64,000 nucleotides of DNA from Adineta vaga (lineage: Eukaryota > Animalia > Rotifera): contig CP075493.1 of the NCBI GenBank assembly GCA_021613535.1, positions 11,656,001-11,720,000 on the forward strand, given 5' to 3'. The notes under the pieces are model-generated. The model saw nothing but the letters and a program-made list of their open reading frames with translations. It was not told where the DNA came from and did not search any database. The translations under genes and the position numbers were made by a program. Below, piece after piece: positions 6,027-64,000 of this stretch; the first letter of the stretch is position 1, and every line of letters starts with the position of its first letter.

Positions 6027-6970
6027 TCATAGAAGTAATGCATCTGGTTCAAAATAGCGACCGAGAAGCCACATTATATCAACTGCCCAATGTATACCAT
6101 TCGTTTGATGGATATGAAATGGCTTATCAATAGATAGAAATCGAGCAAATGTATAATAAGAACGAAAAGGTGCCATAAAATATTGGGCTAAATGATGATC
6201 ATGAACATTTGCAAAACAACTTGCTAATACGTTATTGACAAATAAAGTTCCTGTCAATGTTAATGGAGCATAATAACCTTTTTTCATTTCTATGATGATA
6301 TCGATAACTGGAGAATAGTTTAATGTTTCATTGACTAAAACTACTAAATAATCTCCGATTTCAACATGTTTAGCAAAAAAATAATTTTCGTTTCCATTTG
6401 AATCGATAATTGGAATGAGATGATATTCTGTTAAACTTATCCGATGACCAGAATCTGTTGTTATTGTATAAAATAATGCTATAAGAATAAAATGATAAAA
6501 TGCAATGAACTTTTTAGTATCGTGAATTCATATACCATCTCTCGACGTTTGCTTATCTAACATCATTATCATTTCTGTTGAGATGAGTTTTGATTGATCA
6601 CTTGTGATTAATTCATCACCAGATTGAAGTTGATCGATCTGTTTATATTCTCCATTCGACAATCGAATCAATGAATCACCGGAAAAACATCGATATCTTG
6701 TATAAGATGAAGAATAATCCCAACGAACTTAAATGAAAAAAAATTTCACAATGAATTCAATCGTCAAAAAAGCATCACGAGAGATTCCACACTCAAATTT
6801 TTTTCTAGTTAGAGAATGTATCAGTCATGTGAAAATATAAAACACTTACATCCTCTATATGGATTACGATAAGGTGGATTGTAGCCGTAATATGGTGGTG
6901 CACTCTCAATATGGAATAGTATAATAAACCCAATTAATATCGTATAGAGAAGATGAGCTAGTAAATACAT
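6027..6970 (-). CDS. Hedgehog-related Hint/Hog-domain protein with signal peptide, 3 exons (6970-6850, 6727-6536, 6478-6027)
   Basis: The spliced product has CFSGDSLIRLSNGEYKQIDQLQSGD (Hint block A), MMLD, LTEYH (TxxH) and GYYAPLTLTGTLFVNNVLASCFA, then an SRR-like tail. The GT-AG introns keep the frame. Confidence 0.9.
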
Positions 6971-10521: not shown

Positions 10522-11508
10522 TCAATATTTTTGTTGAAGTACTGCCATCATTCGCGGTGCAACATCCATCAGCGCTGCATTCCAACAAGGAAATTCATGT
10601 CTTCCATGACAACCATGTCCAATGGATTTACCATTTCCATAGAAATCATAATAATGTGATATATTTAATGAATTTAACATTTTATGCATATGATTATTAC
10701 AATCATGCATAGCAATTTCTATGACACCTTGATTACCTGTATAAAGTGCAATATTTACATCCCGTAATGATGCTGCATGAGTAATTGGATTTTCAACAAC
10801 CCATCCACTTGAATTTGTTATAACAAATGGAATACCAAATGGACCATTGACTGCTTTTTTATCAACAGCTTCTGAACCAAAAATAACTGCTTGAACACCG
10901 AAATTAAGTAAATCAATAGCACCGGAAAAACTTGCTGTATAAATAAATAGATTCGGATAAACTTCTGCATAACGAATAGCACCAAATCCACCCATAGAAA
11001 GACCAGCTATAGCACGACCTCCTTTTCTTGCTACTGTTCGTAGATTTGCATCAATCCAAGGTATTAATTGTTCATTATGAAACGTACGCCAATTTTGTGG
11101 AGCAGCTTTGCCTGGATTAATCCAATTCGTATACCATCCAAATGGATCACCATTTGGCATTATTGTAATTAACGATAAATTTCCAAGAATTTGTTGTGCT
11201 ATACCACCTCGTTCAGTCCAATCTTCAGCCTGACCAACACCACCATGTAATAGATAAAGAACAGGATAATGTCGTGTACTACCACTAGTTGTGTAATCAA
11301 GTGGAAGAAGTATACGAATCTTTTGATCGCCTTTCACTTCCTTCGATTGCACAATAACATCGTAAAGTTCATTGTTAACTTTTGAAAAATTCGTGACTGT
11401 CAGACCAAAACCTGATATAAAATCAGGAAAATCACTTACAACACACTGAGGAAAATAATAAACGATCAGAAGCAATTGAATCCAAGAAAAATGATGATAT
11501 TTATTCAT
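10522..11508 (-). CDS. Secreted alpha/beta-hydrolase esterase (antigen-85 / putative esterase family), bacterial-like
   Basis: Signal peptide, YPVLYLLHG, LIPWIDAN, nucleophile elbow GLSMGG, ASFSG and a C-terminal His (GRHEF). Intronless. Confidence 0.88.
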   Translation of the reverse strand: MNKYHHFSWIQLLLIVYYFPQCVVSDFPDFISGFGLTVTNFSKVNNELYDVIVQSKEVKGDQKIRILLPLDYTTSGSTRHYPVLYLLHGGVGQAEDWTERGGIAQQILGNLSLITIMPNGDPFGWYTNWINPGKAAPQNWRTFHNEQLIPWIDANLRTVARKGGRAIAGLSMGGFGAIRYAEVYPNLFIYTASFSGAIDLLNFGVQAVIFGSEAVDKKAVNGPFGIPFVITNSSGWVVENPITHAASLRDVNIALYTGNQGVIEIAMHDCNNHMHKMLNSLNISHYYDFYGNGKSIGHGCHGRHEFPCWNAALMDVAPRMMAVLQQKY

Positions 11509-12119
11509 CGTTAACTCTTCTAGTATGTTATATTTTTAACCGCTATAAATATATATCAGCTACTACCTCAGATGATAATTTTCTCATCAGCATCTTTTTT
11601 TTTAAATATTGCAAATGAGACTTTATCCCACGATTTTCTTATTTTTTTTTGCTTCTAAAGTTATCTGGAATAGATTATGATTTGATAAATTAGTTTCCCT
11701 TACAATATCGCAGTCATTTGTTATTATGAACCACATCACAATTAGAAGCGATACTCGATCAAATATTCAATCACTCAACATGAAAAACTTCTAATCAATG
11801 TCGAAAAACGTAAAGATATGGTTCAATGCCTAATCTTCAAAAACTAACCGCAGGCTTCTGAAAACAACCAGGAAATACGTTAAAATGGACCCCCATAGAT
11901 AAATGTATTACTTGGTTTTAAAGACATTCAGCAAATACCGTAATTATTCAATAAAAAAAAGCAAATTTTCATCTGTAATAACTTGTGAATTCAAAAAATC
12001 TGTTTATAACAATACTGAAAATAGAAGTTGATATGAATTCGAACCATCGAATGGTAATAGTATTATTTATATGATTCGTCTTGACGATGATCAATGTTCA
12101 AGATATATTGAACATGTCC

Positions 12120-16479: not shown

Positions 16480-17090
16480 ATTCGATGAGAATTAAAACCG
16501 AGATATACTCTGATGAAAATCTTCGTAATAGCTATGAAATGTACGAACGTATTTATAGTATTTATACATGACTTTGAAATACGTATGGGATGTATATGGC
16601 GGGTACTTCATTTTTCTTATTTGAACGAAGATTAAAAAAAGAAAATAACTAAATTTCTAGATGATTAATGCCGAGTGTCAACATTTCGATGACATATAAT
16701 ATATTTGCCAAATACAACCATAATCTCAATGTTTTCAATAGTTTATAACAACTTTTTTTCAGATAAGACAAGTAAAAGAACTCTGTTATAACTTTCATTT
16801 ACACATTCATGTCGATGAAGAATTAGGTAATCGATGGATTAATCTTTCGTTTCTGTTCTCAAAAAGAAGTAAAATGCTATGCAAACAATTTTCAGTCGTT
16901 AAGAAAAAAGAACTCTTTCGACTCATTTTTTCATCGGATTTCATTTTTTAACATAAAACAAAATTTCACACGCACATTTCTGCACATGAAGCAGAGTCTC
17001 GTCTTCTCAACTATGTATCAAAAAGACAAAATTTCAGTTTGTCAAGAGTGAAGATTAACACAATAGTGTAACGATTAATTAGTATTTGTG

Positions 17091-18410
17091 ATGTACGGGC
17101 AACAACGTTGTCGAAAAATCGTATTATTTACTATTTTGATTATAATCTTCATTATGGCAGTAACAAAAATTCCACTACAGCAAACTTGGTCAAGAAATTA
17201 TTTATTTCTATCTAATATATCCGATTTGAATGATTGCTATTATATTGTAAAACCATTCTTTCGTTTCTTGTGTGAGAAAAATAACTCCTTTCAACCAGTT
17301 CAATTATCCACTAATTCAGATAATCATATTTGTTACCAATTATATTCAAACAAAAAAGATGCAGATCTATTCTCTCGTGTACACATCCACTTTCAACCAT
17401 TCAAAAATCGAAAAATCCTTTTCTCAGACATTGAAAATTTATCGAATTCCTGTATCAGTTGTCATCATATTCAAATCATTCAAAACAAACTCTACATTGT
17501 ACCAAGAGCAAATGCATTTAACTATCAAACACGTAGTCGTAGTGTGAAGTTGTTAATCAAACAAATGGTAGATACATTTCCCAATATTCCTGATCTCGAA
17601 CTGTTCTTTCATGTTGATGATGCCGTAGAATTACCTGATGGATTCAACGATGTGCTGTTTAATGTACCAATCTTTGCTTTTAGTAAAACTAATAGAACTA
17701 AAAGAGGTTTGAGGCCAGATGGAATAGTTCCGATGCCATGCTTTACCTTTTGGAGCTGGCCAGAGATACGTGCTGGTCGATGGACTAAAATTTCTCGATC
17801 TATTTTGAATACATCCTACAATCTAGAATATAGCAAACGTGTGCCAAAAATATTTTGGCGTGGAGTTCGAAGTTGGAAGAGAATTTGGTTTCTTAAGACG
17901 GCAAGACAATATCCAAATATTATGGATCTAGCACCGGTGAGTTGGCAGAAAGGGATCGATGGTTTAGCATACAAAGCATCGTTTTCATACAAAACATTGG
18001 AAGAACATTGTAACTATAAATATTTAGCACATCTCGAAGGTAGTTCCTATTCTTCGCGACTAAAGTATCTTCTATTGTGTGGCTCGCCTGTTGTTTATGC
18101 TCCTATTCAATATTGGGAAGAATATTGGTATCATCTTTTGAAAGATGGAGAAAATATTGTGTTTTTTGAATCAGCCGGAAATGAAGGAGCATTTAACAAG
18201 ACACTCGAGTTTTTGATGCAAAATGAAGAAAAAGCAAAAGAAATAGGTCGAAAAGGTCAGCAATTAGTACAAGATTACTTAAATGAACATGCAGTGAGTT
18301 GTTATTGGTGGAAACTACTGAAAGAATATGCTAAACTACTAGGATATAAACCAAGTTTACATCGCGATGCTATTTATATTGATGATTTTCTTCTTGGAGT
18401 TTATGCTTAA
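17091..18410 (+). CDS. Glycosyltransferase family 90 (CAP10/POGLUT-like), type II membrane, copy 1
   Basis: N-terminal TM, PDLELFFHVDD, PCFTFWSWPE, FWRG, LEEHCNYKYLAHLEGSSYSSRLKYLLLCGS and AKEIGRKGQ. Confidence 0.9.
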   Translation: MYGQQRCRKIVLFTILIIIFIMAVTKIPLQQTWSRNYLFLSNISDLNDCYYIVKPFFRFLCEKNNSFQPVQLSTNSDNHICYQLYSNKKDADLFSRVHIHFQPFKNRKILFSDIENLSNSCISCHHIQIIQNKLYIVPRANAFNYQTRSRSVKLLIKQMVDTFPNIPDLELFFHVDDAVELPDGFNDVLFNVPIFAFSKTNRTKRGLRPDGIVPMPCFTFWSWPEIRAGRWTKISRSILNTSYNLEYSKRVPKIFWRGVRSWKRIWFLKTARQYPNIMDLAPVSWQKGIDGLAYKASFSYKTLEEHCNYKYLAHLEGSSYSSRLKYLLLCGSPVVYAPIQYWEEYWYHLLKDGENIVFFESAGNEGAFNKTLEFLMQNEEKAKEIGRKGQQLVQDYLNEHAVSCYWWKLLKEYAKLLGYKPSLHRDAIYIDDFLLGVYA

Positions 18411-18730
18411 TTAAAATGGTTCATCAGAACATATACAGATATTCAACTTATTCACATTTACACTTTCCATAAGCTTCAGAGTAATCGTTTTTTGGTGTTC
18501 TTATGAAAGATAGAATAATATGGAGACAATTTTCAATCATTGTAAAAAATTCATTTTTTCTCTTTGTCTTCTGATCATTTAATATTTTCTGCACGCGAAA
18601 AGAAATAAAAACTCGGCAATTATAGTTTTCTTTTTCGTTCCGATATTTTCAGTTAGCAATGGTAACTTATATCGATATATCTATTTACTGTTTTCTAGAG
18701 TAATCATAGGTTGAATGATGTAGTGAACAA

Positions 18731-20065
18731 ATGAAATTTATCATGTATAATTGTCAACATCGTCGAAGTTTATTATTTCTCATCCTTTTACTTCTAGTTT
18801 TCATTATTATCGTGACAAAAAGTCCATCTCAACAAAACTGGTCATCCGTTATAAATAATTTATTTTCAATGAACGACTCGAAATCTAGTGATTGCCATTC
18901 TATTATGAAATCATCTTTCAGTTTTCTATGTGAGAAATACTCTTTAAAATCAATTCAATTGTACAATGATTCCAATGATCATATTTGTTACCAATTATAT
19001 TCAAACAAAAAAGATGCAGATCTATTCTCGCGTGTACACATCCACTTTCAACCATTCAAAAACCGAAAAATCCTTTTCTCAGACATTGAAAACTTATCGA
19101 ATTCCTGTATCAGTTGTCATCATATTCAAATCATTCAAAACAAACTCTACATTGTACCAAGAGCAAATGCATTTAACTATCAAACACGTAGTCGTAGTGT
19201 GAAGTTGTTAATCAAACAAATGGTAGAGACATTTCCCAATATTCCTGACCTTGATATATTTTTTAACGTTCAAGATATGGTCGATCTACCTGATGGACTA
19301 AATAATATACTTTTCAACGTACCAACATTCGCTTTTGCGAAGACCAACAAAGTAAAAGTTGGTTTGAGATCAGATGGAATAGTTCCGATGCCATGTTTTA
19401 CCTTGTGGAGCTGGCCAGAAACTCGTGCTGGTCGATGGACAGAAAAATCGCAGTCCATTTTGAATGCAGCGCAGAAAATATCATATAAACAACGAAGATC
19501 AAAATTATTTTGGCGTGGAGTATGGAATTGGAAACGAATATGGTATATTGATATAGCAAAACAATATCCACATACTATGGATATAAAAGATGTGAGTTGG
19601 AATGCAAGTGTAGATCGTTTTGCTTATGCAGCGTCAAATACATATATGACACTGGAAGAACATTGTAACTATAAATATTTAGCACATCTCGAAGGTAGTT
19701 CCTATTCTTCGCGACTGAAATATCTATTGCTGTGTGGTTCGCCTGTTTTGTATAATCCGGTACAATATTGGGAAGAATATTGGTATCATCTTTTGAGAGA
19801 TGGAGAGAATATTGTCGTTTTCGAGAAAGCTCGAGACGAAGCAGCGCTTAACAAGATGATTGATTATCTATTGCAAAATGAAAATAAAATGAAACGAATA
19901 GGTCGAAAAGGTCAACAGCTAGTACAAGATTACTTAAATGAACATGCAGTGAGTTGTTATTGGTGGAAATTAACTCATGAATATGGTAAATTACTCGGAT
20001 ACAAACCAACTTTACATCGAGATGCTGTTTATATCGACGATTTTCTTCTTGGAACGTTACTTTAG
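18731..20065 (+). CDS. Glycosyltransferase family 90 (CAP10/POGLUT-like), tandem copy 2
   Basis: Same motifs as copy 1; a clear tandem paralogue. Confidence 0.9.
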   Translation: MKFIMYNCQHRRSLLFLILLLLVFIIIVTKSPSQQNWSSVINNLFSMNDSKSSDCHSIMKSSFSFLCEKYSLKSIQLYNDSNDHICYQLYSNKKDADLFSRVHIHFQPFKNRKILFSDIENLSNSCISCHHIQIIQNKLYIVPRANAFNYQTRSRSVKLLIKQMVETFPNIPDLDIFFNVQDMVDLPDGLNNILFNVPTFAFAKTNKVKVGLRSDGIVPMPCFTLWSWPETRAGRWTEKSQSILNAAQKISYKQRRSKLFWRGVWNWKRIWYIDIAKQYPHTMDIKDVSWNASVDRFAYAASNTYMTLEEHCNYKYLAHLEGSSYSSRLKYLLLCGSPVLYNPVQYWEEYWYHLLRDGENIVVFEKARDEAALNKMIDYLLQNENKMKRIGRKGQQLVQDYLNEHAVSCYWWKLTHEYGKLLGYKPTLHRDAVYIDDFLLGTLL

Positions 20066-23606: not shown

Positions 23607-26173
23607 ATGGCCACAAGAGGTAGCGGTAATAAAGTGTCTTCGACCAAAGAAAAAAAGAACAATCATCATCGAGACGAAGCAAATTTGTCCGACGATGATA
23701 ATGATGGACAAAAAGCTAACTATGAGAGTACAAAGTCAAAATCATCGAGAAGATCATCGGTTCCAACATCTACAAAGGAACATGTTAACGATCCTCATTT
23801 GGAAAGAACATTAGATCGACCACGTACCATCCAATTCCAATTACCTTTACGATCATTCGACTCTGTTTCTTCTTTATCTTCTAAATCATCAAAACATTCT
23901 TATACTGATTCATTATCCGGATCTTCAGCTTCATCATCCTCATCTTCATTATTTGATTCGTCTTCAGAAAACGATTCGGACTCGGAAACTTCTCCTAAGT
24001 CACATACACGTTCAAGATCTCAATCATCAAACGAAGATTTCGACGTTAAACATTGGTTCGAAAACGATATGATGGAAATGAAACATGATCTTAGAGATTT
24101 TTGTAAAAGAAAACCTTTGATCTTATATCATGAATGGAATGCTAAAGTATGTCGTGATCAATTTCGTGCTCTTAAACCGAATGATTCATCGTACGATAAA
24201 CGCCGTCGATTACTTAACGTGACAGTGATGGCTACAACTGATCGTGCGATTGTCAAAGGAAAATATACAGTTAATAATGAAACAGTTGAATTCAATTTTC
24301 CTGGCCGTATGAAAACTACTCTCTATGAACATCTATTAAAGTCACCTCAAGATGATAATATACAAGCAACATTTAAAACAACTGATGTGAATGTTGTGAA
24401 CGATGATTGTGTGAATGTATGTGATCGATTGATGACTAAAGGCTACGATCCTGTGATGCTTAATATGGCTAATTCGTCAACTCCAGGAGGTGGATTTCGT
24501 ACTGGTGCATCTGCACAAGAAGAAGATCTATTCCGTCGATCAAACTACTCTCGTAGTCTTGATATTAATTTCCCTGAAACAGCTGAAAAAAACCATAAGC
24601 GTTCATATTGTAAGTCATCCAATGAACCCGAGCCATATCCAACTAATGTATCAATGTATCCATTGGAAGACTTTGATGCTATCTATACGTCAGGTCTCTG
24701 TTTTTTTCGGCTTGATAAAGATAACGGTTATGCTTTCATGGATGAACCTCTATACGATGTTTGTTGTATAGCAATAGCTGCATCTCGAGATCCTCCAGTT
24801 AAAGATGGACAACTTTCATCAGATATAGCTGAAATAATGCGAAAGAAAGTGGAAACAATTTTTGCCATTGCACACAAGAATAAACATGATTCTTTGGTAT
24901 TGTCAGCATTTGGATGTGGTGCATTTCATAATCCACCTGAGCATGTGGCAAACATATTTAAGTCTGTCATTGAACAATACGCTGGTGTATTTCGTCGAAT
25001 CGATTTTGCGATTGTTGGCGCATCGGATAACTCACATGGAAACTATTCTATATTCAAGAAAGTACTCGATGGACTCAATGTAAAAGCACCTGAAAGAGCT
25101 AAAAGAGATAATAGTACACATGAAATGCAAAAGGATCAAAATTCATCTCGACATATGAAAAAAAGAAATGAATGTCTTTATGGAATTGAATGTCGTCTAC
25201 AATATTCAGAAAAAAATTCAACCCAACATAATACTAAATATACTCATCCATGCCGGTGGTCAGAGCTTTGTACAAATCAAGACAAAGAACCACATTTAAC
25301 TCATGCAAATCATAGAGCTCATCAATGTCGCAATCGTGATGCATGCAAAGATATCATCGATCCTGTTCATAGAGCAAAGTATCGGCATGAAAACTTGCCT
25401 GATTTCCTGGTACCATGCAAGTATCAGCAGAAATGTCGAGATTCAACATGGACTCATCGAGTGAAATATTCACATGGTGAATTGGCCGGAGGTAGGCTTC
25501 GATTGAATTGATCAAGTTTTTCTTGAAATTGCATCGATTATTTACGCATAGATGATAATAAGCATGGAACAACACGGTCAAAATCTGGTATGAATACTAA
25601 GTTTTGATTTTATCGTCAATTTCTGTCCTATACTAACTATTTCAGATCAATCGAAATCAAAATCATCGACTAATGCGAATTATATAACTGGCATGGATCA
25701 TTATGAACCAGATAATCGATCTAGTGACCATTCATATTCAAGAACTAAAGAAAGATCTACAAATAATTCAGAGTCAAAGTCATCTGGTTCTCACCATCAT
25801 GATTCGACCTCACGACGACAATCTTCCGGTATTTTAGTTTTCTTATTTTGAAGAGAAATATATCATTTTTCTTGATTCTTATCATCATTCTTAGATACTA
25901 ATTCACGAACAAAAGGAGAAGATGATCATTACCGCAAAAATCATTCCGACAAGAACAACAGTGGTACTAGTTTATTTAGCTTTGTTTGAAAAATATTCAG
26001 CTTTCTTCCATTTTTCAGATTCAACAAATTCTGGTAAAGTATCGTCAACATCAAAACACAATCGAGAGTTGACATCCATTGATAAACGATCGCATAAAAC
26101 AGAATGCAAATATGGATCACAGTGTTACAACCATGATCAGGATCATCGTTCCAAATATAAACATGAAAACTGA
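23607..26173 (+). CDS. Microbial-type PARG (TIGR02452/DUF2263 macrodomain) with Ser-rich N-terminus and five PBZ-like zinc fingers, 5 exons
   Basis: LNMANSSTPGGGFRTGASAQEEDLFRRS (GGG-x7-QEE), LVLSAFGCGAFHNPP and FRRIDFAI. C-x5-C...H-x3-Y-x-H repeats follow. Four phase-1 GT-AG introns after 25491 lead to KTECKYGSQCYNHDQDHRSKYKHEN*. Confidence 0.88.
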
Positions 26174-26401
26174 TAAAAACTCGTTCCAAATTTTTCTAAC
26201 TTCTTCAATGTGTAGGAAAATTCAAGATTTATTTTGAATATCAATAACAATATCCTAAATAATAGATGTAAAGAATGAGATTTTTACGGTTTGCAAGAAA
26301 AAAAATAGCATAAAATATAGAAATGATCTTATTGTTGCTACTCGTAAAAGAATTTTCCTCAATGATTATATGAACAGTTTTAGATTTAAAGCTAAAATAC
26401 G

Positions 26402-27322
26402 ATGAGCGTTCAACGAAATTCCCGTAGACGAAGTACGTCGGTAAGTAGACTGAATAGATGAATTTTTACAATGACAATTGATTTCGGCACTAACGAAGTT
26501 TTTAGAAAAACGCTTGTTAATAAATTCATTTACGATTCTAACTCTTTATATTATAAGATATCCGCTGATGCTTCCCGTAGCATTCATCGTCGACCATCAA
26601 GACATCGGTCCAGCACACGCCCTCGTTCACACTCGCACCATAGCAGACACTCCTCTCGTCGACGCAAACCTCGCTCAAATCATCGACATAGACAACGAAG
26701 TCATTCTCATCATCATCAAACTAGACGAAGTAGCACAGGCAGTATGCATCGCAAACGGAATAATAATGATAATACTGCATTCATTGAGAGCTCTCTTCAT
26801 CTACACAACAAATTACGTCGTCGACATGGTGCTCGAGCACTTCAGTTGAACAACGATCTTTGTAATCTAGCTCAAAAATGGGGTTCATTATTTCAATTTT
26901 TGAATATTAATCTTTAAAGAATTTATGTTCTTTTATAGCAAATTATCTTGCCGAAAAAACTCAATTTAAACATAGTGGAACGGAATATCGAGGTAGTAAA
27001 CTCGGTGAAAATCTATATTATCAATCGAATCCGATGGAAGGTCAGGTATATTATCAAATACAATATAATATAGATAGATATGTTTTCAGGAGGTAAAGAG
27101 TCAACAAAAGCATGGTATAATGAGATTAAAGATTATGACTTTAACCGTGGTGAATTTAGTCAAGCAACAGGCCATTTTACTCAACTAGTATGGAAAGAGT
27201 CGAAAGAAGTAGGGTTTGGCCTAGCGAAAGGTGCATCAATGTACTACACTGTTGCTATGTACTTTCCGGCAGGCAATATCGACGACCAATTCATGCAAAA
27301 TGTGCTTCCAGTAGCGCGATAA
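26402..27322 (+). CDS. CAP/SCP (GAPR-1/GLIPR2-like) protein with Arg/Ser/His-rich N-terminus, 4 exons
   Basis: HNKLRRRHG, AQKWA, KHS, GENL, WYNE, GHFTQLVWK and YFPAGN, joined by GT-AG introns (26441-26557, 26883-26938, ~27041-27089). Confidence 0.88.
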
Positions 27323-28136
27323 CTTTTTTATTTAATCAACTGATCTTCTTTAATAAAAAAAGAGTTCAAAACTTATTTTCCATAAATTATATCTGTAGAA
27401 GAGCGACCTTTCGGTAACAATTTCTAGCATAAATATAAATTCTAAATCATGTTTACTGCAGATGGATTGAGAAACATTGTGAAGAAATAGTGAAAGAAAG
27501 AAAATGCATTTGTGTTATTCTTTTTGTTCTTGTCTTCAACATAAATAAAACGAAATCAAGAAAAAAATTCTCATGACAGTTTAAACCTGTTTTCAACAAG
27601 AATTTATACGTAAAGGCTATTGAATAGTTATTGCTCTTCTAAAGCTATGCTCTAATAAATTCAAAGAAGTCTTTTCTAAATTTTAATAAGACTTTTACCA
27701 GGTTCATATTTGCAAAAATAGCACCTGCGTTGAAGATTGCTTTCAGAAGTCTTATGCCAACATGTGCTCATTGCACAACAGACTATACGTGGTAATTCAG
27801 GTCATCTATCTTAGTAAGCGCAGGCATCAGAGCATCTTGGTAATTGTGTCAATAATTAACTCCCGTCCGTAATGTTTTTTCTCCCATCTATGATTTTTTC
27901 CCTTGGACGAAAGAACATAATCTATACTATATGACTCATCGTCAAAACCTTACATGTAGATGATTCAAAGATACGAAGTGGTTGAATAAAAAAATATTTT
28001 TGTTGTTCGCTTTTTGCGTGTTATAAAACAGAACGCAAAACATACCACATTTTCATTACCTGTCGACTTTTGTCATCATTTGAAATATTTTGTCCTATAA
28101 CTGGTAAAATATTGTAAAAAACATTACATACGAAAT

Positions 28137-30561
28137 ATGTCGTCGAAAAAAAGTCCTTCACATTCAGCTTCAAAAACGCATCGACATTCTCGTCCAAATT
28201 CGCGCTCAGAATCAAGATCACGTTCAGCTACAAAATCGCGACGAGGTTCTCATCCTGATTCGCGGTCAACATCAAAATCTCGGTCACATTCACGTACGTC
28301 AAAAAGTGCATCGAGAAATCAACATCAGAAGCAAAAGAAGCATCACTATAGAAATCAATACCGCCATTTAAAATACCATGCTGCCGTCGAATATCGTTGT
28401 CTTAATCAAAAAAACGATTTCGTTAAAAATCAAAGCGAGCTTATACGAAAAATTCTAGATCATGCGAACAAAGAAAACTGGAGTAAATCGCATTCAATTC
28501 CACATGATTTTATATCTTATATTCGTCATCTACAACCGGTTCACCAATGTGCACCAGAAATATTTGAGTCAATCTGTATTCTTGGTCACGTACTAAGTAA
28601 AGAGTATAGAGATGACTTAATCAATCCGAGCAAAGCGGTAGAAATTGCAATCCAACACAATGGAGTACGACGGCTTATTCCCGATCTGCTCGTAGATGAT
28701 GCTGATATTTATATTACAAATGTAATCGAGCGCGAGTACGACAAACACAATAATTTACAACTTAGAGAAAACGAGCATCGTAGTATAATTAAAGAGAAGG
28801 GCACTCTGTTGAAGGTGAATCTTGGAGAGAAAACGGTCCGTAAGATTAAAGATTATGCTATTCGTGTTGCAAAGGCAGCACTCACACTTCTGGAGAACAA
28901 ACCAGGAGTTAATCATGACAAAGACAAAGACTTTGGTACGGACCGACATATTTTTGCCATTCTCGGTCCACATCCTGGTAATTATGGTGATGTTTTTATC
29001 GTTTTCAAACGTGAAATCATGCTACATCCAGATTCTAACTTTTCAAGTTCAGCAGCCACTACATACGGACAATCTTCAAATGCCTACAAACATCAACCGT
29101 GGTTAACTGATCCCAAAGCAGAGAAAGAACGAATTCTCTGTTTTCACTCAAATAAAATGCATTGTTCTATAAATGGTTACGAAAATGTTGCAGCACATTC
29201 ATTGATGGCCTTATGTGGGAAAGACACGAATACTTTGAAAGTTAGTTTAAAAAAAGCACAAGAATGGTGGTGTGATCAAGATCCACATTTTGTTTTCGAA
29301 GCTCATCTTCCTTCGAGAGTTCCTCTCGACTATATCGATAGTATTTATATGCCAAAGAACGTTTTCAAGTCGTATTCTCCTCAACTTCAAAAATCTTTAC
29401 GTCAATTTTTTGGTCACTCACTCCACGTCACGCAACATGATGTCGATCAAAATGATAAAAAAAATCGTGGTGAATTAACCGATAAAAATTCACGTTCAGC
29501 CTATCAAAAATATGTGAATGACAATTTGATAAAGAAGTTTTCACGCAGTAAACAAAATCTATCTCATCGCATGCGTGGAACTGCACTTACTGTGGCACAA
29601 AGTGAATTCGTGGAACATATTCGTCTTCCTATGACAATTTCTCAACAATGCACTCTACAAATGCAACTTTCGAAAAACAAAATGAATCTATCATCGAAAT
29701 CACCTACTTATATTTATTGGCAAGCGATGTGGGGTGACATGATGTTAACAGTATCGAATGAGCCTCTTAATATTCGTAGTCTCAGTGATAAAAATCTTCA
29801 ATGTCTTGTCTGTTATATTGCCCGAGTTCCATCTCCTCTTGATAAAGATTATCAAGAATCGTATTCTTATATAACCAACGGCACACCCTTACAGCATAAA
29901 TTTAACATATCTCGACGTAATTACCACGTAGGATCGCACACATTTCATCGTCATTGTAAATTTGATGATTACGTTACCTATCGACTGAAAATTGAACGAG
30001 ATAATGGTCAAGTAACACTCTCTCATGCTGGCCGAGATAGTTATCATAATAAAGAAAAACTCATCTACCGATTTAAGAAGAGCGAGCTTGATTTGAGCAA
30101 GCTTATTTACGTACACATATCGGCAAATGAACATCCGGTAGCAATACGAAATTTAACAATTCGGTTTGAACGGGCGCATCACTCACATACTTCAGTTAAG
30201 CATACCACTGGCCATCGTCGTTCCAGCAAACAAGGAAACTCACAGACGCGTCGTTCTCAATCACGAAAAGGTAAAATCTTAGACTTCTTTTTCAGTTATA
30301 CGCATACTAATGAACTTTGTATTCATTTTCTTTAGGTAGTTTATCATCAAGTCGTGGACGAAATCGAAGCAGATCTTCTGGTACTAGTCATCGCTCTCGA
30401 TCGACATCAAAGAATCGAAAACCGCGACGTACATCTGGTAAATATCAGCATAAAGATCTATTCCATTGTCCTTTGAAACAATTGTCTCTATTTTAGTTGC
30501 CAGTTCAAAACGTTCTACATCTCGTCATAGATCAAAATCAAGTGATCCTCATTCTCATTAA
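28137..30561 (+). CDS. Uncharacterised protein with RS-rich termini and a central putative ADP-ribosyltransferase-like domain, 3 exons
   Basis: Long ORF plus two RS-rich exons ending TAA at 30559-30561. The core GTDRHIFAILG..NYGDVFIVFKRE...FEAHLPSRVPLDYIDSIY resembles ART-fold strand and catalytic-Glu patterns. The gene itself is confident; the fold call is tentative. Confidence 0.6.
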
Positions 30562-30804
30562 CACTACCGGAAACATGGCAAGCGACGTACTTCGCATCGA
30601 ATATATTCAAAAATTCAATAAATCACCGACCAACATGTTATTTGTCTTGATTTCACCTGTATTCATTTATTGTTACAATTCTGTTCCCTTCTATTTCATT
30701 TCAAAATAAACTCGAAAAAGTTTTTTTTAACAATTCTGTATTTGTGTAACAGAGAAGATATTAAAACGAAAGGATCGAAGTTTTGATCAAGCAAAAATCT
30801 CAGT

Positions 30805-30874
30805 TGAGGGTGGGTGAGGGTGCGGATGTTAGATAGATGTAATATTAACACACATACCCAAACCCTCATCCACA
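30805..30874. repeat. TGAGGG-arm / CCCTCA-arm hairpin element
   Basis: tgagggtgggtgagggtg ... cacatacccaaaccctca are imperfect inverted arms around a spacer shared with 9446-9486. Confidence 0.65.
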
Positions 30875-31253
30875 TGAATTTGAATGATTTTTTGGGTTTA
30901 AATCAATCTAATACATAATACAACCTAAAACACAAAAAATGTGAAGTTACCAATGTCACCGCCGAGGTAGGTAACTTTCATTATCATCCAAGAGTCACTT
31001 CAAAAACGATGTAACACGAAATATTCAAGAAAAATCGATCAACATTTTTTGTATAACCATAATTCTTAGATGAGTCACGAACTAAATTTTAACGTAGCAA
31101 ATGTTTTTTTGTCGATGACGTGTTCTGTAATCATTTGTCATAGTTTCGTGTATTTTTGAAAATCATCCGTTAGTGTGCTCGAGGCATACCTTTTCTCCCA
31201 CATTTTCTCCCACGTTTTCTCTCTTCATCTGTTCTGACACACTATTACTCAAC

Positions 31254-31269
31254 GTGTGTGTGTGTGTGT
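31254..31269. repeat. (TG)n microsatellite
   Basis: gtgtgtgtgtgtgtgt. Confidence 0.7.
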
Positions 31270-31383
31270 TTAAGCATTTTATATTTGTCGATTCTTATGG
31301 CTTTTTTTTTCTTTTGGTATAAAAGACACCTATACCTCTCATACTTCGAACATTGCTTATTGTGAAAAGAAATAGTTACGAAA

Positions 31384-33106
31384 ATGAGTTATTCAGAAAA
31401 CCCATCAGTCAGTAAACCACAGAACGATTTACGAAAGGAACATCAAGAACGGCACAAACCAAATGATTCTGAACCATCATCATTCAAATCTCGACCTTGT
31501 CGCGATGGTTTAGACTGCATTCTTTATGATTCTATTACTCATTGCTCAAAATATTCGCATCCGTGTCGATTTGCGCATCGATGCAATAAAAAAACTACGG
31601 AGCCGAATTTTACCCACGAACCTAATCCTACTCAACAGTGTAGATATGATGAGCAATGTCGAAAGATCAATGACCCACTTCATCGTGCAAGTTATTGGCA
31701 CTCGAATAAATCTGACTATCTACGAGCTTGTCGTGATCACGTACGATGTTCCGACAATTCATTTGAACATCGATCCCAATATGCACACGGAGAATATAAA
31801 TCAAGTACTTATTTTCATTTCTTTTACAAAACATAAAGCATATCATTACTTTAGTCTTCAATTCTAAACCATTGCCAGTACATTCTCAACATAATAATGA
31901 TCATCAACATATTCATAAGAAAGATTCACACAAACAAAGTACCGACAAAAGTTCTAAAACAATCGATCGTGCAAGAAATACGTCCTCGAATCATTCTCCA
32001 CCTGATCGAACGCAATTGCAAAGAAAAGAAAAAATACAAAGTCCTGACCGATCTACGAGTCAAGAAAAAGCAAGCGTACATAAAAAACCTGGCAACAAAG
32101 AAAATACGACCAGCGGAAGACGATCACAAAGCCGAGGCAGATCAAATAGCAAAGGTCGATCACAAAGTCGAAAACGATCGCAAAGCCGAGAAAAACTAAA
32201 ATCAGAACGAAAACCAAGCAATAAAGAAAAATCGAGCAGTGGAAGACGATCACAAAGTCGAGACCGATCAATTAGCAAAGGTCGATCACAAAGCCGAGGT
32301 AGATCAAACAGTAAAGGTCGATCCAAAAGCCAAGAAAAATCAAAAATACAAGGAAAATTGGACAATCGCGACAAAAAGGGAACTGATGAAAGATCGCAGG
32401 ATCGAAGCAGATCCAAGAGCCGAGAAAAATCAAAAACACAAAGAAAACTGGGTAACCAAGATAAATTGCACAGTGAAAGAGGGGCACGAAGTCGAAGTAG
32501 ATCACAAAGTCGAACAAAATCCGATGGCTCTACTTCTCAGGATTCAACAAGTAAGATTCAGTAAAATATTTTTACTTTTGATGCCTAAAACTTTCCGATA
32601 AAGTTGTAAGTTTCAGTAATGAGTTACTGTCAAAGATGTATGTGATGCGCTATTATAGTGAGCAGGTCTTTCTGGCACAGAAACAAATATGCCGAAAGGA
32701 GACTTTTTCGGATTGTGAAGAATATGAAGCGGAAGCCATAATATCTACAAAAGATTTTTCTCCTGATCTACTTTCGATGATAAAAATAGGCGTGGATGAT
32801 GATGATTATGTATGTATGTATGTATCTCTTTTTCATTCTTACTATATTCATCCTCAAGTCAGAGAATAGATTTTTTTGAATCTAATTATACAATATGGTA
32901 TTTCTTCTTTAGAAGTTTTATCATCAGTACCAGAAAACACTCCGAAATCAATTTTACGTCCTTCTCGCCGTTCAAGATCTAGAGATTCAGCTGGAAATGG
33001 TTCGTAGAAATTTTTGTGAACTTAATATAACCTCTTTGTCTCTATAGAATTTAAGAATAATGCTGCACGAGGTCGATTCTCAAGATCAAGAAGTGAATCG
33101 AAATAA
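31384..33106 (+). CDS. PBZ-like four-zinc-finger cassette protein with long RS/KS-rich basic tail, 4 exons
   Basis: The finger cassette is collinear with that of the PARG gene. Intron 31805-31854 joins it in frame to hexapeptide repeats (RSQSRG/RSNSKG). Further phase-1 introns lead to the stop at 33104-33106. Confidence 0.8.
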
Positions 33107-59864: not shown

Positions 59865-60818
59865 TCAAACATTTGTAGCAATTATACTGAGCATACCATA
59901 AATACTCAATGTCTCACGAACTTTTTCGACATGAAAAAGCGTCTTTTTGTTTTTATGATCATTTGTAGTTACTTGCAACATTTCAATCTTTTCCGGTGTG
60001 ATTTTAGGGAAAAGAATTTGATACAATCCATCGGCAGTTCGAATAACAAAATATTGTTTTGGTTTCTTAATAATCACATCATTATTCGATTGACAAACAA
60101 GATTTTGAAGTATATCTAATTTTTCTAATTCATTAATTCCCACATATGCAGCAAGATAAATCACCTGACATTCATTTAAAATTGTTCGAACGTTATTAGG
60201 TAATGGATGTTCACTAATATCTTGTGTAATGAAATGCATACGTTGAAAAAGATCTGGAGATAATATTTGTTCACTAAGAACAGATGCTAATTGATTTGCT
60301 TCTTCACACATATCAATATTATAAATATCGACGCAAGGTCCATGATCATTAAGAATAATCAAAGAAGATGTAGGAATTGGACCTGATCCAATAAAAGCAA
60401 TTTTTGTCACTAAAAAATCAGTTTCTGCATTGTTATTTGTTAAATTTTTAGCAAGATAAACATCAAGTTCTTGAAGCATGTTTATTTCACATTGAATTAA
60501 TTCTTCGTAACCTTTACGATGTTTGAAATGTTCACTGAAATTATGATTTCGATCAACAGCACAGATCTTTGCTGCTCGTATTTCACCGTAGAGACCATAG
60601 AGAGCAAATAAACGACGAAGATTTTCACATGATATTTGTAATTCTGTATCTGTCTGTAACATGTGATCCACTGAGGATGAATTCATATCTTTTGACGACG
60701 AACACAATGTAATAAGTTCATCGAATAAATCAACAATTTGCGGAGAAAATTCAGTTATATCAAGTTGAGAAAGTTCAGTATTTAATTGAATAAGTCGATC
60801 ACGCATAGAATTGTTCAT
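59865..60818 (-). CDS. Nicotianamine synthase-like (NAS family) SAM-dependent aminocarboxypropyltransferase
   Basis: YEELIQCE, KIAFIGSGPIPTSSL, NIDM..AN..A, VIYLAAYVG..EK..IL and VIRTADGLYQILFP follow the NAS motif order. Intronless. Confidence 0.85.
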   Translation of the reverse strand: MNNSMRDRLIQLNTELSQLDITEFSPQIVDLFDELITLCSSSKDMNSSSVDHMLQTDTELQISCENLRRLFALYGLYGEIRAAKICAVDRNHNFSEHFKHRKGYEELIQCEINMLQELDVYLAKNLTNNNAETDFLVTKIAFIGSGPIPTSSLIILNDHGPCVDIYNIDMCEEANQLASVLSEQILSPDLFQRMHFITQDISEHPLPNNVRTILNECQVIYLAAYVGINELEKLDILQNLVCQSNNDVIIKKPKQYFVIRTADGLYQILFPKITPEKIEMLQVTTNDHKNKKTLFHVEKVRETLSIYGMLSIIATNV

Positions 60819-61047
60819 TGTTCTTTGAAAATAAATGCAGTCCAAGTAGTACGTTGCAAAAGATGACTTGCAGTTTCAGAGTAGATTCAAAGTTGTATAT
60901 ATACATAAAAATACTTTATCATTCTGTATGATAACAACATTTTTTTCTTTTTTTTTCTGTTGATATTATGATACAACAAAAAACATGTAGATTATATGGA
61001 AAGATATATTCTTTCACAATTATATTAGAATCTGTAGTTGAAATTAT

Positions 61048-62135
61048 TTATTCAAAGAAAGTTTTTTTAGCAGGAAATGTCGAATATCGTCTACGAATGG
61101 CATCATTACGTCTTAATGTTAAGACATGAATTAATGCTCTGATTTCACCAATACGATGGCCAACAAAATGATCATAGGAACTGCCTTCATGTGGTTGTTG
61201 AAGAGCAAGTTCTTCCAATTCTCTTTTTAAATTTTCAATAAATTCGTTGCAATCATTGATTATGTCTTCTATAAAAGAAAAAGGAACAAACAAAATATTT
61301 CATTGAATATATCTTTTTTTCTGATTCGTTTACGTACCATCGGACATTGCATACAGACACACATGTTTATATTCATGTAATCCATTGATAGACAATGGTT
61401 GTTGTTGACCTTTACTTTGTCGAATGACACCTTTTACTATTTTTTCAAACATATCAGGAATACTAACATCTGCTAGAACAATATTTTCACATAAATGTTT
61501 GGCAAATAGATTATCTTGAGTTTTCTTTCGCTTATTATCAATAAATTGATGGGCAGCACAAGAAAATTGAATGAATGTTTCATCAGGTACAGTCATTGTC
61601 TGGAGACCTTTGTTCTGCTCACCAGCTAAAACAAAACGTAAACAGTAGTTTCTATAAACTATAAACAATGTTTATTCTACGTACGATTTGATGGCGATTC
61701 ATTTTTGTAAAAATATCGTTTATTACAATCAAGAATAAATATATTCACGTAAGATTGATTTTTGTCTGTTATTTTTGATAATGCGCTTGTAACATTAGCA
61801 CCTATATCTTGAACATCCATATCTTTACCTATTTTCTCATCATCGGTAGGTATCATATAATTAGTTCCATCAACCTGTCGACATTGACCAGAAAAATAAA
61901 CTAAAACTAGATCTCCATCGGTAATTTCTTCAGCGAAAGTTGCAATAGTGTTCAGTATTTCTTTATCAACATTTAAACGAGTAGTTACTTTGAAATTAAT
62001 TGTCTCGAGTAAACCACTTAGTTCCCTAGCATTTTTAACCGCATGTTCTAGCCGATTCTCTTTCAGTTTATAGGTACCGTTACCAATAATGAGTGCTCGT
62101 TTCTTATGAGATGAAGAATTATCGGCACTTGGCAT
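61048..62135 (-). CDS. Peptidase C14 caspase-like protein, predicted inactive, 3 exons
   Basis: KRALIIGN..Y, YFSGQC (His replaced by Gln), NYMIP.D, ILDCNK (catalytic Cys lost) and the p10-like NLFAKHL..QQP. Confidence 0.85.
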
Positions 62136-62748
62136 ATTTTTATTTATATCTAAAATACAACCTCCGACAAGCAATACCTTCGAACTTAACAAAATTATTC
62201 TGCGACATTTCATTAAAAAAAAGTTGCATCGTCTGCATACAAAATCAGGGGTAATATTTCAACACATTTAACTTTATTTTTCATCGAAAAAAAATTCCAA
62301 CTAAACAAGATTTCGTAAGTGATGTGTTGTGATGCTTTGTATGTTGGAAAAAATTAAAATGCATTTGTCGTTAAAAAAAACAGACGAATTCATACAAACT
62401 TAAAAACAACAACAAAGATTATGTTTACCGAGCACAAAAAAGAGAAAGTGAGTAACTTTTCTTGCTTCCAACCGATTTTTACCCTAAACGACATTTTTTT
62501 ATGCTAAATCATGCTATACATACATACGTGATTTTTAATATTACCTTGCGTTCAGCGCCAAAAAGGTATCCAACGATGAAACACTGTGTAAACATCCTCT
62601 CTAGGTCTATTGAAACCTGTTGAGTGAAATTTTACATTTTCGAGGAAGTATTGTATTTACATTCGAAAAATACAATGCGAATATAAAATAAAGTGTCAGT
62701 ACATGATCAATCTTTAGATTTAGCTAATATTTCAGATATAGAGCAGAA

Positions 62749-64000
62749 ATGGCACGTTCTAATGACGATTCATCACAACATCGAAAGTTAGCATTAGTCA
62801 TTGGAAATGGCGATTATAGTCTACGAGAAAATCGATTAGATTATTCAAGAAAAAATGCTCAAAGTATTGCCAATTTATTAGAACAACTAGGATTCGATGT
62901 GAAACTTGCCCATGATTTACCTAAACATGAATTGACCACATGTATTATTGATTTTTCTAAAAAAATCGAAGATGGTGATTTAGTCGTATTCTATTTCTGT
63001 GGTCATGCATGTTATAGTAACGGCGATAACTATCTCATACCCGTCTGTGATAATCAGATAGTTGCACAAGACGATATGAAGGACTTTGCTAATAAATACG
63101 AACATATGGTATCACGTATACTAGAAAAAAATGAATCATATGTAACTATTCTAATTTTTGACTGTGCAAAATCATATTTAACAAAGAGTACAAGAAAATC
63201 AAAATGTAAGTATAAGATCATTAAATGCTTTGAAAAGATACAAGTCATATTAATTTAGCATTAAGCCAATGTGATGGATTAGTGGAGACAAAACCATCTG
63301 CTGGAACAATAGTGCAATTTGCCCGTTCTACTAATCAACATGCAAAAGACAATAATGATACAGGCTCGTACAATTTATATTTTAGACATTTATTAAATAG
63401 CATTGCTGAAGAAAATGTTGATATTGCGGATGCTTTTCAACGTATTGACAATGCTGTACGCCAGGAAAGTAAAAATACACAAAAACCTGTATCTATGAAT
63501 GGTTTACGCAAAAACCAATTGATTTGCCTCAATCTTGTTGTCAAACCTGTTGAGAGTAAGTTGATATTAATATGTACAAAAGAATTGCATCTTTCTGTCG
63601 CTCTTACTCTCTCATCAATCTATCGGTTTTGTAATTTATAGAATGGGATGAAATCAAACCAAGTGAGATGGCATCCGTAAAGAAAAAACAAACGGAGATG
63701 AGGGCGTGTTATGATAATTTTCCAAGTATTGATGATCTTACCAAAAAAAACAAACCAAGTATTGCAAGAGCAGAGAAATTGACACAACAGATTTTATCAC
63801 AACCACCATCGGGAGATGCCGGGCAAAGGGATACTGCATGCCATGTTCTACACAAACTCTTCGAACAGGAAAATCAAGAATGTTTATTCTTTGATTCCAC
63901 TCAAAACATGACACTTCATGATGCATCAGGAAGTTTGGCTGATTTTAGTTCTCAAGAAAAACCATTTGTTTTAAAATTAAACAATGTCGATGGACTCGGT
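62749..64000 (+). CDS. Peptidase C14 caspase-like protein with additional C-terminal domain; runs off the window end
   Basis: RKLALVIGN.DY, YFCGHA, NYLIP, FDCAK and a p10 exon. A third exon from 63642 stays open to 64000. Confidence 0.85.

Follow-up and report, generated by a model that had tools for sequence, protein, structure and literature searches.

Neighbouring genes in the bdelloid rotifer Adineta vaga resemble separated parts of a fusion family joining PARG to an ADP-ribosyltransferase fold

The ADP-ribosyltransferases (ARTs) usually counted in animals are PARPs, ARTCs, Tpt1 and sirtuins. Bacteria have others, including the injected effector SopF, the injected ADP-riboxanases OspC3 and CopC, and the DNA-modifying toxin-antitoxin systems of the DarT/DarG and DarT1 type, in which a transferase is paired with a macrodomain hydrolase. 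In fungi, the accessible part of the report on Mfs1, a macrodomain-fused SirTM, places writer and macrodomain in one polypeptide (PMC13720257). In the bdelloid rotifer Adineta vaga, a bacterial-type PARG with PBZ repeats was described by Perina 2014, citing Slade 2011 (accessible text of PMC4245714), and the accessible portions of stress studies on this animal mention PARPs and PBZ proteins and not PARG. Here, we describe four adjacent A. vaga genes, A to D, at positions 23607-33106 of a 64,000-nucleotide stretch (the window) of contig CP075493.1 (assembly GCA_021613535.1, positions 11,656,001 to 11,720,000 of the forward strand). A, C and D match, in order, the PARG, transferase-fold domain and four-finger cassette of a family of fusion proteins. 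We judge it reasonably likely that these three genes arose from duplicated copies of such a fusion and are now expressed as separate pieces, with C predicted to write ADP-ribose, A to erase it and D to bind it, and with B a bystander.

Domains of the split genes and the fold of C

A preliminary description of the locus had reported four adjacent, co-oriented, intron-containing genes, and the gene models agree. Gene A (23607-26173, + strand) encodes 775 residues in 5 exons, with a Ser-rich N-terminus, a PARG domain, a four-finger cassette, a linker rich in Ser, His, Arg and Asp, and a C-terminal PBZ finger. Gene C (28137-30561, +; 766 residues, 3 exons) has basic Arg/Ser tails at both ends and a 600-residue conserved core between them, and gene D (31384-33106, +; 420 residues, 4 exons) consists of a four-finger cassette and a long, repeat-built Arg/Ser/Lys tail. 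Gene B (26402-27322, +; 232 residues, 4 exons) lies between A and C and joins an Arg/Ser/His-rich N-terminus to a CAP domain. The spliced frames of all four genes each reach their own stop codon, and the intergenic gaps A-B, B-C and C-D are 229, 815 and 823 bases. A and C are identical to A. vaga database entries I4U23_003799 (P0138 in our set of relatives) and I4U23_003801 (P0090), and copy number and synteny within A. vaga were taken from such entries.

Contigs of four runs, which were guessed to be RNA, showed all 12 introns as GT..AG joints; 10 of these were present in every one of the four runs and 2 in two of them. Three DNA runs contained none of the 12 joints, though all 30 bins were covered. 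In the RNA-like runs, neither the B-C nor the C-D interval was covered, and no joint connected one gene with another, which is a weak hint only. Near-identical short pieces in run X18, which is labelled as another organism, were left out of the analysis.

The PARG (DUF2263/TIGR02452) domain of A (24036-25106, +) scored 116 bits against TIGR02452 (cut-off 50) and 78.7 bits against PF10021 (cut-off 23.5), and its GGG-x7-QEE motif (24486-24524) is also present in 78 of 89 fusion proteins. A carries five CCHH fingers, four in the cassette (25173-25478, +) and one at the C-terminus (26105-26164, +), as the preliminary description had stated. The cassette keeps 25/25 conserved columns of the type found behind the C domain in fusions. 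Its score was a median of 107 bits on the post-C cassette (n=107) compared to 41 bits on the fingers that precede the C domain (n=17), and was higher on the post-C cassette in 10/10 proteins carrying both finger sets. The cassette of D (31498-31788, +) keeps 22/25 of these columns and is identical to that of A at 41/99 positions, in line with the earlier reading of D as a standalone copy on a protamine-like tail. A is predicted to remove ADP-ribose and D is predicted to bind it. The PARG that Perina 2014 described in the same species likewise combines GGG-x6-8-QEE with PBZ-like fingers, and the accessible part of that account makes no mention of a transferase domain, a lectin-like domain or a split cluster (PMC4245714). 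ACD54723.1 may be the sequence entry for that published protein.

The core of C (residues 75-690) was modelled as two domains with a predicted local distance difference test (pLDDT) score of 92.1, and the N-terminal domain modelled alone scored 94.5. In this model the N-terminal domain (residues 88-475; 28398-29561, +) has an ART fold. It is followed by a lectin-like beta-sandwich (29574-30164, +) that resembles ConA, galectins and PF12248. Foldseek searches with the two-domain model returned mostly lectin folds, with SopF at rank 30; searches with the N-terminal domain returned SopF first (E 8.5e-4), followed by SopF again, OspC3 and DarT, and CopC was also matched. When this domain was aligned to 48,161 chains with VIA-align, ranks 1-8 were all ARTs (Z 9.9-11.8, 165-209 residues, root-mean-square deviation (rmsd) 3.3-4.3), led by SopF (Z 11.8, rmsd 3.8, 209 residues aligned), OspC3 (10.8), CopC (10.6) and DarT (10.5, 10.3, 10.1 and 9.9). 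The rows that followed were helical and short (71-84 residues), and Tpt1 reached Z 7.1. Since rows within 1 Z of each other count as tied, the fold does not separate protein-modifying from DNA-modifying relatives. The model thus supports the earlier ART reading of C, which had also been called an orphan, a label that its many relatives (see below) do not allow.

CopC uses a catalytic set of His137-Phe183-Glu325, plus His327 and Asp172, as given in the accessible part of its description (PMC9239266). Five residues of C, His136, Asp263, Phe273, Glu388 and His390, are conserved at 89-98% in a set of bdelloid and distant relatives (77/83, 82/84, 76/85, 79/85 and 78/85, respectively), and C keeps all five, with the triad residues in the expected order on strands. 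We therefore assign C a putative CopC-like His-Phe-Glu triad from the order and conservation of the motif rather than from a superposition of residues; by the same motif comparison, both proteins have Glu-x-His and an Asp about 10 residues before the Phe. C is predicted to attach ADP-ribose from NAD+.

C also differs from these bacterial proteins. The ART fold is common to C and to OspC3, CopC and SopF (Z 10.4-11.8), but identity is 7-14%, and C is eukaryotic, contains introns and a long helical insert, has relatives in which the domain is fused to PARG and fingers, and comes without a known activator or target. OspC and CopC carry C-terminal ankyrin repeats where C has its beta-sandwich, and C has no OspC match in Pfam. 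The fold is likewise common to DarT and C (Z 9.9-10.5), with no DarT match to C in Pfam or PADLOC, and the partner at this locus is a bacterial-type PARG (PF10021) rather than DarG or NADAR. A Pfam UL49 row for C (E 0.017) was below the cut-off and was rejected, an Atlas OspC row of 0.86 is a lead only, and the C model gave no clear match in a viral structure library.

Two natural alleles of C were also observed. One lacks 42 bases of the N-terminal tail (28230-28273) with the frame preserved, and the other has a one-base insertion at 30539 that leaves the C-terminal tail 5 residues shorter. The core is unaffected in both.

A family of fusion proteins in bdelloids and protists

The preliminary description had raised the possibility of a split ancestor with the order PARG, fingers, ART, fingers, and relatives of C support this well. 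An exhaustive search gave 289 matches, of which 150 were listed and 30 distant ones were looked up. A search for longer relatives gave 89 proteins of 1286-2828 residues, all bdelloid where a species is named, which can carry PARG, a finger array, the C domain and the four-finger cassette in one polypeptide. The C domain is preceded by PARG in 84 of them, and in 66 it is followed by the cassette as well. A. vaga itself contributes six of the full fusions that were matched. In four of the five remaining longer relatives (P0004, P0008, P0020 and P0022), a classical ART (PF01129) takes the PARG position before the fingers and C domain. The N-terminal region of the fusions gave sub-threshold RRM matches only (2/5, E ~0.01).

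Metagenome loci were scored at the DNA level. PARG and the C domain were encoded without interruption in a single frame in 25 of 39 scored loci (20 groups at 90% identity; L040 was dropped because it held no scoreable C match). Two more had an upstream PARG in a separate frame, and 12 had no upstream PARG, 4 of which start with the finger array and 8 of which lie near contig ends. A metagenome scan with C alone returned no close locus. One 1720-codon frame (L007:1213-6372) encodes PARG, a short finger array, the C domain and a C-terminal PF01129-type ART, as do L008, L010 and L026, so that such proteins combine two transferase-type domains and one eraser in a single polypeptide.

The 30 distant matches comprised 9 proteins from named protists (four from Diphylleia and one each from Pharyngomonas, Copromyxa, Gefionella, Pelomyxa and Kipferlia), 6 of them with a PARG domain, together with 1 from Adineta steineri and 20 lacking an organism label, which could include other animals. 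In a tree of 87 rows, C paired with the metagenome fragment P0229 (100%), within a 99% clade containing all nine named bdelloid rows. Given this tree and the fused forms across bdelloids and protists, the fused state is very likely ancestral. Bdelloids probably took the family from a protist, as its spread suggests, and A and C are both flagged as horizontal gene transfer, with the same best hit, ACD54723.1, in Table S2 of PMC12220480. No relatives of C were found in prokaryote genomes with two bdelloid-derived patterns, nor in plasmids or phages by tblastn; a bacterial origin of the C-domain family is possible.

Some distant relatives (P0329, P0347, P0355, P0318, P0340 and P0333) join a C-type domain to PARP plus EF-hands, protein kinases, a guanylate-binding-protein GTPase or vWA, and RING or RanBP2 fingers occur in several of the bdelloid fusions. 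These partner domains hint at immune or signalling use.

Origin of the split cluster and competing readings

The window contains neither the N-terminal region of the fusions nor their middle finger array. Since the cassette present in A is of the kind that normally stands behind the C domain, one copy of a tandem pair likely lost its middle to give A; the second copy would have lost its front and broken in two to give C and D. The simplest path would be tandem duplication with reciprocal loss. Duplicated and incomplete copies are frequent in the family. Related loci include two that hold two copies each (L001 and L022), and C-less or finger-only forms exist, with PARG joined to the cassette in P0139, P0140 and P0143 and fingers only in P0222, some of which may be gene-model errors. 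At L022:3166-14469, a cassette by itself stands in tandem with a partial gene for fingers and the C domain and with a full fusion, an independent rearrangement like that of the window. A short multi-copy element with loose ends, at about 5x local depth in three DNA runs, lies between C and D (30804-30868) and could mark the event that separated them.

The homology and order of the domains, the fused form in bdelloids and protists, the separate spliced frames and the modelled fold are what we count as established; the division of labour is a prediction built on them. The whole fusion would act as a self-contained reversible ADP-ribosylation switch, in which the ART-fold domain writes, PARG erases and the fingers read or target. 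At this locus, the writer would no longer be tethered to the eraser.

Several observations weigh against this account. Only the last finger of A exceeds the Pfam PBZ (PF10283) cut-off of 22.7 bits (24.9), so that four of the five fingers of A and all those of D, whose cassettes score 13.6 and 17.4, fall under it. No ART came up when PDB, Pfam, NCBIfam and PADLOC were searched by sequence with C or with its alignments, and the triad was assigned from motif order and conservation. Microbial PARGs are strict exo-hydrolases of poly(ADP-ribose) polymer, according to the accessible part of PMC7050489, so that A may not reverse a mono-modification placed on protein by C. The branches of A, C and D are long, and the three can neither be tied to one parent copy nor matched to particular parents. 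Other species yielded no orthologue of the split cluster, in a comparison that did not reach the flank of P0229. C differs from the family at 16/111 conserved columns (median 2), including a Gln at position 137 where 112/116 relatives have Arg, and the PARG of A differs from the fusion consensus at 24/119 (median 2).

Expression data add a further point. Gene order (two GT90 genes, arrestin, DUF2263, CAP and two unnamed genes) places A, B, C and D at FUN_001653 to FUN_001650 in Table S2 of PMC12220480; locus-tag numbers had no direct mapping, and the D id comes from order alone. Reads were recorded for all four (base means 110, 25, 101 and 107, respectively). In spaceflight, C was the only one of the four to move (log2 -0.23, false discovery rate 0.048), with no significant change in A, B or D, and three probable full fusions also fell (log2 -0.34 to -0.46). 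The table gives no support for co-regulation, though the condition was mild.

What the family modifies is finely balanced. A nucleic-acid target is slightly favoured, with a protein target close behind and NAD+ hydrolysis, or no activity, well below both. This order reflects the reversal of phosphate-linked nucleic-acid ADP-ribose by PARG-type enzymes (accessible part of PMC8883491), the weak RRM-like matches, and the exo-hydrolase habit of PARGs, which would be a poor match for an Arg-linked mark on protein. The CopC-like motif would point the opposite way. The low-complexity tails, if gained at this locus, would favour nucleic acid or nuclear condensates. A fuller history can be proposed tentatively: ancient eukaryotic SopF/OspC/DarT-like transferases would have been fused to PARG and fingers as a one-protein nucleic-acid switch, which bdelloids took from a protist, expanded and here split into toxin-antitoxin-like writer, eraser and reader genes with condensate-type tails. 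We regard this as possible, and clearly less probable than the split and the predicted roles themselves.

The strongest competing explanation accepts A, C and D as fission products and takes C to be a pseudo-enzyme, acting as a binder or as a dominant-negative regulator of the intact fusions, so that the three genes do not form one module. The changed columns of C and A, the long branches and the lack of a common response in spaceflight are all consistent with it, as are the PARG-less and C-less forms that recur in bdelloids, which indicate that shuffling is common. However, the five putative catalytic residues of C and the PARG motif of A are intact. P0229, which is 65-69% identical to C, keeps the unusual residues of C in another lineage, and 22 of 46 coding differences, counted among 40/77 and 40/287 rows examined, are synonymous compared to about 26% expected. 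With these signs of maintenance, we consider an inactive C unlikely.

Less probable still is the co-regulated unit of all four genes put forward in the preliminary description, in which shared basic tails would bring every product, including the CAP protein, to one compartment, and for which that description suggested a role in the response to DNA damage or desiccation, in packaging of chromatin or in defence. B does belong to the CAP superfamily, as had been stated (Pfam CAP 22.6 and 36.6 bits on two exons, cut-off 21.1), and adds to that domain an Arg/Ser/His-rich N-terminus in which no signal peptide is evident by eye. The genes are adjacent and co-oriented with gaps of 229-823 bases, and the Arg/Ser/His-rich tracts reported for all four do exist. 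The highest count of these residues per 40 is 24, 34, 28 and 22 in A, B, C and D, compared to 8-15 in each of 16 other open reading frames of the window and a median of 16 in the 89 fusion proteins. Because only 4/89 fusions reach 24, four neighbours sharing such tracts needs explanation. However, the tracts of A are Ser-rich and not basic (highest net charge +7, compared to +13 to +15 for B, C and D), and basic tails are therefore confined to B, C and D. No CAP match was found in 40 related loci (482 kb) or in 137 relatives of C, and B did not move with C in spaceflight. To our knowledge, the CAP superfamily has no link to ADP-ribosylation. B is probably an unrelated neighbour, and a four-part module is improbable.

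Finally, C could be an ART fold that hydrolyses NAD+ or makes a small ADP-ribose signal with no macromolecule modified, since a fold does not fix chemistry and since a further, classical ART (PF01129) takes the place of PARG or the cassette in some bdelloid members, so that the C domain need not be the transferase; we consider this very improbable because the eight top structural matches are all transferases of proteins or DNA and because the conserved Asp and Glu-x-His resemble the acceptor-activating residues of CopC.

Surroundings of the locus and meaning for the family

Elsewhere in the window are several genes unusual for animals: a TauD dioxygenase (2016-2720, +), a bacterial-type esterase (10522-11535, -), two tandem GT90 genes (17079-20065, +) and a nicotianamine synthase-like gene (59865-60875, -), all of which are likely horizontal acquisitions. 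The window also contains a Hint-module exon (6027-6527, -) and metacaspase-like (Peptidase_C14) frames at 61677-63641.

A PARG with PBZ fingers in A. vaga has already been published, and the main novelty would lie in the family, in which a eukaryotic SopF/OspC/DarT-like transferase fold is fused to a candidate eraser. We found no description of the C-type transferase domain or of its PARG fusion in the literature searched, from which subscription journals were mostly absent. A related published arrangement, fungal Mfs1, also has its writer and macrodomain in one polypeptide, but in the accessible part of its report the writer is a sirtuin rather than an ART fold, and there are no finger arrays (PMC13720257).

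If its members have the activity that their fold and motif suggest, the family would be an additional class of writer in eukaryotes, one missed by sequence searches of Pfam, NCBIfam and PDB. It is spread through protists of several supergroups, and A. vaga, an animal tolerant of radiation and desiccation, has six or more intact copies. It would also account for the large, finger-rich PARG published from this species. The naturally split A and C would provide a ready pair for separating writer from eraser.

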